Below are positions 30,006-30,147 of a DNA stretch of 64,000 nt, piece by piece. Numbering within the stretch: position 1 is the stretch's first letter; every line of letters begins with the position of its first letter. The DNA comes from Escherichia coli (GTDB taxonomy: Bacteria > Pseudomonadota > Gammaproteobacteria > Enterobacterales > Enterobacteriaceae), in NCBI RefSeq assembly GCF_003334405.1, contig NZ_QOWM01000007.1. One strand, given 5' to 3'. The notes below the pieces were generated by a model. That model searched no databases, had not been told where the DNA came from, and saw only the letters and a program-made list of their open reading frames with translations. A program made the position numbers and the translations under genes.

Positions 30006-30035
30006 TCTGTCACAGAATGAAAATTTTTCTGTCAT
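30006..30035 (+). promoter_or_regulatory. upstream Pho-box-like repeats (CTGTCAC/CTGTCAT)
   Basis: CTGTCACAGAATGAAAATTTTTCTGTCAT. Confidence 0.6.
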
Positions 30036-30107
30036 CTCTTCGTTATTAATGTTTGTAATTGACTGAATATCAACGCTTATTTAAATCAGACTGAAGACTT
30101 TATCTCT

Positions 30108-30147
30108 CTGTCATAAAACTGTCATATTCCTTACATATAACTGTCAC
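30108..30147 (+). promoter_or_regulatory. PhoB binding sites (Pho boxes) of pstS promoter
   Basis: CTGTCATAAAACTGTCATATTCCTTACATATAACTGTCAC: 7-bp direct repeats at 11-bp periodicity, about 65 nt upstream of pstS ATG. Confidence 0.9.

Follow-up and report, generated by a model that had tools for sequence, protein, structure and literature searches.

Does the control of pstS by PhoB end with the two tandem Pho boxes in front of the gene, or does it reach into the DNA upstream of them? The pstS promoter serves as the reference promoter for structural, kinetic and systems studies of PhoB and is usually modelled as two tandem boxes; classical deletion work is said to have defined it as the two proximal boxes together with a -10 element. 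A preliminary description of the locus had drawn attention to a further pair of CTGTCA(C/T) repeats, had read these as PhoB sites, and had suggested cooperative PhoB binding extending upstream from box 1. We examined this distal pair in a 64,000-nucleotide stretch of E. coli DNA (the window, to which positions refer unless stated otherwise), in the pstS loci of other species, in complete E. coli genomes, and against published maps of PhoB occupancy. The distal pair is real and non-random, and it belongs to what sequence comparison indicates is a conserved auxiliary Pho-box-like module. For the family as a whole our preferred reading, which we hold with about even confidence, is that the pair represents a weak auxiliary PhoB module that would be brought to the promoter by a bend.

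The control region and its proximal Pho boxes

The DNA under study is the glmS–pstS control region, the features of which are collected in Table 1. Its 314-nt intergenic stretch (29900-30213) is identical to that of E. coli K-12 MG1655, where the pstS ATG corresponds to coordinate 3911525; pstS is followed by pstC and then by pstA. The upstream limit of the regulatory region is the glmS terminator, the stem-loop and T-run of which are found at the same position in all aligned genera, with differences in the stem that are compensatory.

Table 1. Features of the glmS–pstS control region, in window coordinates. Scores are from the 18-bp PhoB matrix.
Feature	Position	Strand	Sequence	Remarks
glmS	28071-29900			upstream neighbour
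glmS intrinsic terminator	29906-29931	+		stem-loop and T-run, from terminator scan
D0	29973-29989		K-12 ATGTGACAAACCGTCAT; genus majority ATGACAATCTGTCAT	inverted pair of PhoB-like half-sites
D-a	30008-30025	+	TGTCACAGAATGAAAATT	distal Pho-box-like unit 1; 8.9 bits; holds CTGTCAC (30007-30013)
D-b	30030-30047	+	TGTCATCTCTTCGTTATT	distal Pho-box-like unit 2; 8.7 bits; holds CTGTCAT (30029-30035)
IHF-consensus-like patch	30056-30068	-	K-12 TAATTGACTGAAT; majority TAACTTATTGATT	majority sequence is the reverse complement of WATCAANNNNTTR
A/T-rich spacer	30069-30107			sequence not conserved, length conserved
Proximal Pho box 1	30108-30126	+	CTGTCATAAAACTGTCATA	known PhoB site; 23.3 bits
Proximal Pho box 2	30130-30147	+	CTTACATATAACTGTCAC	known PhoB site; 15.7 bits
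Putative pstS -10 hexamer	30158-30163	+	TATTTT	10 nt downstream of box 2
pstS CDS	30214-31254	+		first gene of pstSCAB-phoU; ORF list and RefSeq annotation of identical DNA

Both proximal boxes are already known as the canonical activator sites of pstS. Each has the make-up of a Pho box, an 18-bp unit with two TGTCA-type direct repeats 11 bp apart and an A/T-rich spacer, and each has a majority fraction of 0.93 in our alignment of 35 sequences; box 2 had previously been given as TTACATATAACTGTCAC at 30131-30147. The DNA that follows (30148-30170) is likewise conserved at 0.93 and includes TATTTT, which we take to be the pstS -10 from the geometry of PhoB promoters. For scoring, an 18-bp PhoB matrix was built from 58 non-pstS sites identified by ChIP-seq (Fitzgerald et al. 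2023, PMC10294691, Table 1); these training sites themselves score from 7.0 to 21.5 bits, with a 10th percentile of 10.7. When the 127,966 positions of the window were ranked with this matrix, from which pstS had been left out, box 1 came first and box 2 fourth. Two other matches in the window are recorded here. The sequence TGTAAAAAAGTTGTAATA at 47959-47976 on the minus strand scores 16.3 bits and is without a peak in the ChIP-seq table, and the match at 4539 (region 4526-4556), TGTCACCATCAGGTCATA, is the listed rbsK site and is overlapped by a 15.4-bit match on the minus strand.

The distal heptamers

The CTGTCA(C/T) pair described at 30006-30035 is present, with the correction that it begins one base later, at 30007. 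All five CTGTCAY heptamers of the region lie on the plus (pstS) strand. Over the whole window this heptamer is not enriched, with 14 copies found compared to 13.8 expected; five of the 14 copies are packed into 141 bp. A pair of heptamers at 22-bp spacing occurs twice in the window, both times in this region, with 0.00 expected from shuffles. Taking as background the other nine heptamers in approximately 128,000 strand positions, the probability of two further same-strand copies within 150 bp is about 5e-5. A chance origin of the distal pair is ruled out by these clustering statistics and by the conservation across genera described below.

Because the distal heptamers are separated by 22 bp, and not by 11, they do not together constitute one canonical Pho box. 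They belong instead to two separate 18-bp units, with D-a and D-b in K-12 each consisting of one perfect half-site and a poor partner. The K-12 18-mers that start at 30008, 30019 and 30030 score 8.9, 7.6 and 8.7 bits and rank 33, 66 and 37, respectively, so that approximately 30-65 positions in the window match the scores of the distal units. The scores of D-a and D-b are above the minimum for the ChIP-seq sites and under their 10th percentile, and they are the weakest of the family.

Conservation of the distal module across species

A scan for PstS, with one genome taken per species, yielded 80 loci, and 81 upstream regions were scored. Each locus was anchored on its own box 1, and plus-strand matches of at least 7 bits were counted from -200 to -25. 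Of the 81 upstream regions, 50 have a D-a-type match at -101/-102 relative to box 1 and 43 have a D-b-type match at -79/-80. Plus-strand distal matches occur almost exclusively at these two locations, the rare extras being mostly displaced by 11-bp steps (-112, -90, -68 and -57). Minus-strand distal matches are scattered, with one or two per offset.

Alignment of 35 glmS–pstS intergenic regions gave ATGACAATCTGTCAT…TGTCATAAAAAGAAAATTTTnCTGAAATnTTAnTGTCAT…TAACnnnnTGAT as the majority sequence of the distal block. Mean pairwise identity, calculated without gaps, was 0.72 within the 40-bp module and 0.87 over the proximal array; the spacer had 0.43, compared to an expectation of 0.32 from composition. 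The majority fraction was 0.90 for D-a (30007-30024) and 0.55 for the spacer (30060-30103). Outside of E. coli K-12, D-a scores 9-15 bits in other genera; D-b has the sequence TGAAATnTTAnTGTCAT in most genera and scores 10-15 bits. The distal units of Kosakonia and Phytobacter reach 13.7-15.1 bits, compared to 16.9-18.2 bits for box 1 of the same loci. The module also adjoins pstS where glmS is 0.7-1.9 kb away or is lacking within 2.5 kb, such cases being found in Kosakonia, Phytobacter, Franconibacter, Pluralibacter, Yokenella and C. gillenii. The module is absent from Serratia, Yersinia, Edaphovirga, Buttiauxella, Cedecea and Mangrovibacter, in which only the proximal four-register array is found.

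The substitutions within the module follow the preferences of PhoB. Minor variants have a mean matrix weight of -0.90, compared to -2.90 for bases that are never seen (permutation p<1e-4). The variants of the first half of D-a (TGTCAC, TGTAAT, CGTCAT, TTTCAT and TGTCAA) are each found among the ChIP-seq sites. The distal units thus show a further mark of Pho boxes, that of conserved orthologous sites with substitutions tolerated by PhoB.

Other causes of the conservation were considered and rejected. The small ORFs of the region encode only 24-54 amino acids, are purely mechanical, and are interrupted by single-base indels among genera. A structured RNA is excluded by a fold z-score of -0.21 and by Rfam matches that are all below threshold. 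The module is also not a recent duplicate of the proximal promoter, the similarity of the two within K-12 being not significant (135 of 1000 shuffles). When the genus consensus of 29990-30017 was compared with that of 30092-30118, a similarity of 27 nt running into D-a and box 1 was found (TTCAGCTACTTTTTCAGTGTCATAAAA and TTAAGCGAATTTTTCGTTGTCATAAAA; 4 of 1000 shuffles), a hint in the sequence that the array may have been duplicated in the distant past.

Architecture of the module

The module consists of four registers (0, 11, 22 and 33), arranged as they are in the proximal array. Most genera have two strong half-sites on the outside and two weak ones between them (TGTCAT … gAAAAT … TGaAAT … TGTCAT). 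In K-12 the third register is a perfect CTGTCAT, this being the second of the heptamers, and the fourth has decayed to CGTTAT; the SCPM and LR14 alleles of E. coli have the strong and weak half-sites in the opposite arrangement to K-12, as do the other genera. The strong half-site of D-b, formerly in the 3' half, is located in the 5' half in K-12, a difference that, judged from these alleles, is half-site turnover within a maintained unit.

Two elements of the distal block do not have the character of PhoB sites. In the second register of D-a, the AAAAT at 30020-30024 is shared without exception by all 49 distinct orthologous modules; PhoB would prefer G, T or C in this register, and the sequence is not a PhoB half-site. 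It may represent an A-tract bend or the contact of a second protein. The other element is D0, which has a majority fraction of 0.79-0.97 over 29976-29989 and of 0.85-0.97 for its GTCAT. Scored as an 18-bp PhoB site, D0 remains below 7 bits, and its inverted ATGACA/TGTCAT pair is one that a head-to-tail PhoB dimer would not use. The CusR/HprR box ATGACAAnnTTGTCAT resembles D0, which has one base less between the arms. The AAAAT and D0 together suggest that curvature or a second protein contributes.

The DNA between the module and box 1

A fixed distance separates the module from the proximal boxes. The gap from the module to box 1 is 61 bp and is the same in module-bearing loci, all 45 of which could be set in fixed register without gaps; the spacer identity reported above was measured over -61 to -5 of these loci. 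The only conserved columns between the module and box 1 are TAA (30056-30058; majority fractions of 0.85, 1.00 and 0.82) and TGAT (30064-30067; 1.00, 1.00, 0.85 and 0.85), and these are specified positions of the IHF consensus WATCAANNNNTTR as read on the minus strand. The K-12 sequence matches the consensus at seven of its nine specified positions and the genus majority at all nine. The patch varies in its four N columns (0.53-0.68), and TTGAT has a poorly kept first T (0.41). Among the 35 aligned sequences, the match to the IHF consensus is always at -53, being present in 7 of the 35 by a strict definition and in 21 by a relaxed one; two shortened alleles have a strict match at -42. Two papers from the Spira/Yagil laboratory report, according to their titles, that IHF affects PstS expression and the pst promoter. 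The DNA downstream of the patch is 75% A+T.

The locus of E. albertii has the module and the IHF-like patch together exactly 11 bp, or one helical turn, nearer to box 1. This locus (L004) also has about 160 bp of extra DNA that separates the glmS stop codon from the terminator and includes a REP-like palindrome, GCCGGATAAGGCGTTCACGCCGCATCCGGC, as well as the terminator stem in a second copy.

These distances bear upon how a distal PhoB dimer could reach the promoter. The start-to-start distance from D-b to box 1 is 79 bp, approximately 7.5 helical turns, so that the two would be on opposite faces of the DNA unless the DNA is bent. The suggestion of cooperative PhoB binding that extends upstream from box 1 does not agree with the presence of a 61-bp, poorly conserved gap without a half-site array, and across such a gap any cooperation needs DNA bending or looping. 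Contiguous spreading of PhoB from box 1 was rejected on these grounds, there being only one weak adjoining register (30098, 9.0 bits) and then no array over the 61 bp.

Variation within E. coli and the lpf-type allele

The distal region of the K-12 type was found in 3,064 of 5,426 complete E. coli genomes. In approximately 44% of the genomes other DNA has replaced this region and the module is lacking; the module is therefore dispensable in E. coli. The K-12-type alleles include 1,600 genomes that are at least 99% identical over 29950-30100. In some K-12-type alleles (L085, Ecol_656; L086, TUM14697), the CTGTCAC at 30007-30013 is replaced by CTGACAC; these belong to a class of about 96-97% identity that makes up a sizeable share of the K-12-type genomes.

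In at least 1,479 of the 5,426 genomes, the lpf-O113 fimbrial operon (lpfABCD-O113) and its flanks are located between glmS and pstS (the L001 form). In such lpf-type alleles the DNA is different from the stop codon of glmS until just a few bases short of box 1, corresponding to about 29901-30104 of the window, and the L001 allele has a C-to-A change in box 1 (...AAAAATGTCAT). No homology was detected between the upstream DNA of the lpf type and the K-12 module. The DNA between lpfD and pstS contains a Pho box on the minus strand, TGTCATCTTTTTGTCATG, which scores 18.9 bits and lies at -73 from box 1 (5933-5950 in L001; also found in L090). This box is identical in the two lpf-type alleles, the flanks of which have diverged. 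The occurrence of PhoB-type sites 70-100 bp upstream of the same core promoter in two unrelated contexts is the best independent support for the selection of auxiliary sites.

Published PhoB occupancy in K-12

We compared these features with the published maps of PhoB binding in K-12. ChIP-seq gave a single peak at pstS, which exceeded every other in the genome and alone remained at high phosphate (PMC10294691). Its centre, at 3911600, maps to 30139 in the window, on box 2 and not shifted upstream, and the motif reported for it is TGTCATAAAACTGTCATA, an instance located at box 1. This confirms, in DNA identical to that of MG1655, the earlier assignment of the canonical pstS Pho boxes to 30108-30147. 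ChIP-exo gave two PhoB peaks at pstS (Choudhary et al. 2020, PMC7657598, supplementary file 2), which map to 30155-30190 (Peak_6, covering the TATTTT) and to 30069-30110 (Peak_7), with the proximal boxes located between them. Peak_7 adjoins the IHF-like patch upstream of box 1 and does not coincide with a Pho box. It could represent the upstream edge of a larger complex of PhoB and RNA polymerase, or of IHF.

Neither of the published K-12 lists, ChIP-seq or ChIP-exo, contains a PhoB peak over 30007-30047; note that these lists give called peaks and not reads. Weak distal binding in K-12 may fall below the thresholds for peak calling. Measurements of expression identify pstS as the gene most strongly activated by PhoB, with values of about 770-fold (RNA-seq) and about 900-fold (qRT-PCR).

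Discussion

In the established part of the mechanism, phosphorylated PhoB binds to the two proximal boxes, which replace the -35 element, and recruits RNA polymerase. Our preferred reading adds to this that D-a and D-b would bind one or two extra PhoB~P dimers with low to moderate affinity. A bend at the IHF-like patch, combined with the fixed 61-bp gap, would then bring the distal dimers beside the proximal complex of PhoB and RNA polymerase. There they could stabilise the proximal complex or raise the local concentration of PhoB, with the result that the sensitivity or the timing of pstS induction would be tuned. A more far-reaching version, which we regard as doubtful, has the pstS promoter as a bipartite, IHF-bent complex of up to eight PhoB monomers on the distal and proximal four-register arrays. 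The distal array would have been selected across the Enterobacteriaceae and would set the sensitivity of pstS, which is exceptional because pstS alone is bound by PhoB at high phosphate. Lineages with the lpf island would, by this version, have re-acquired an auxiliary site in the form of the inverted 18.9-bit box at -73.

The proposal that the distal pair consists of PhoB sites thus stands in part. It is supported by the conservation at fixed distance, by the PhoB-tolerated substitutions, and by scores of 10-15 bits in many genera; against it are the K-12 scores, which are the lowest of the family, the lack of a listed distal peak by either ChIP-seq or ChIP-exo, and the loss of the pair from about 44% of E. 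coli genomes. The same observations, and the mutation of the core to CTGACAC in some other alleles, would be expected if the K-12 pair were the decaying relic of an ancestral element, unbound and unused, with PhoB acting only through the proximal boxes. We consider this unlikely, as the module is otherwise well kept in the K-12-type alleles, a perfect CTGTCAT arose at D2 in K-12 where D3 decayed, a change more suggestive of compensation than of decay, and the DNA that replaced the module in lpf-type alleles again has a strong Pho box. It also seems quite improbable that the conservation of the block mainly serves a different protein or the architecture of the DNA (an A-tract bend, IHF, Fis or H-NS, or another response regulator), the TGTCA words being only a part of the site. 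Such a role would account for an AAAAT that is invariant without being a PhoB half-site, for a D0 unsuited to the head-to-tail PhoB dimer, and for the conserved IHF-like patch, but the half-site spacing, the strand and the spectrum of substitutions all fit the PhoB matrix. We know of no other E. coli OmpR-family regulator that better fits TGTCAY direct repeats with an 11-bp period.

Two further readings retain PhoB as the ligand and assign it a different task. By analogy with ompF, where distal OmpR sites and an IHF bend restrain the promoter, the distal sites could form a dampening loop, being filled at high PhoB~P and then restraining pstS by way of the IHF bend. Low-affinity distal sites and an IHF-like bend site are the ingredients for such a loop, and the output of the phoB and ugpB promoters falls at high PhoB~P (Gao & Stock); that pstS is the gene most strongly activated by PhoB argues the other way, and we give the loop very little weight. 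The module might also serve to activate a further PhoB-dependent promoter, P2, with a start near 30068 and reading through the main promoter. It has the four-register layout of the proximal array, the conserved TAA follows D-b after 9 nt, at a place where a -10 could be located, and Peak_7 is found immediately downstream, in the position that Peak_6 has at the main promoter. The activating geometry, in which the PhoB site overlaps the -35 position and ends about 10 bp before the -10, is however lacking at the distal units. The gap is 9 nt compared to 10 nt at the proximal promoter, the hexamer in K-12 is TAATTG, its last T is found in only 53% of sequences, and the promoter scan found no sigma-70 promoter on the plus strand of the distal block. 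A second promoter at the distal module is unlikely, and we find the read-through version of it scarcely credible.

We return to the preferred reading, that of a weak auxiliary PhoB module, and to what would follow from it. Our confidence in a measurable role in K-12 is less than our confidence in this reading for the family. The distal module is degenerate in K-12, where its contribution is probably small, and the practical consequence for K-12 itself is probably small as well. If the module is real in function, models of the sensitivity and timing of the Pho regulon omit a part of the control region, and an auxiliary module could help to account for pstS being the target that is bound most strongly and responds first. 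The allele swaps that occur naturally in E. coli (K-12-type, lpf-type and shortened) make the question directly testable. We found no description of the distal module, D0 or the IHF-like patch in the searchable literature, which does not extend to the early footprinting and deletion studies.

The proximal part of the region is the same element as the classical pstS promoter, two tandem Pho boxes and a -10 that are activated by PhoB~P; the distal module, D0 and the IHF-like patch fall outside that definition. With upstream sites that are assisted by IHF, the region shares a conserved IHF-consensus patch between the distal sites and the core promoter and a rigid spacing. NarL at narG and the distal OmpR site at ompF are of this kind, as reportedly is NtrC at glnHp2, to judge from the title of a paper. 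The pstS region differs from these in that we infer IHF binding from the consensus and its conservation, with K-12 having seven of the nine positions, and in that PhoB is a sigma-70 activator of the class II type that is not known to need looping. There is also a likeness to PhoB promoters with multiple boxes, of which ugpB has three and phoBR of Vibrio cholerae has several. In these promoters, as at pstS, several PhoB dimers would be arranged on direct repeats phased at 11 bp, with graded affinity and on the strand of the gene. The phoB promoter itself has two PhoB sites (Fitzgerald et al., PMC10294691). The boxes of the multi-box promoters are contiguous or nearly so, whereas in the pstS region the two four-register arrays are held apart by 61 bp that are fixed in length and poorly conserved in sequence.
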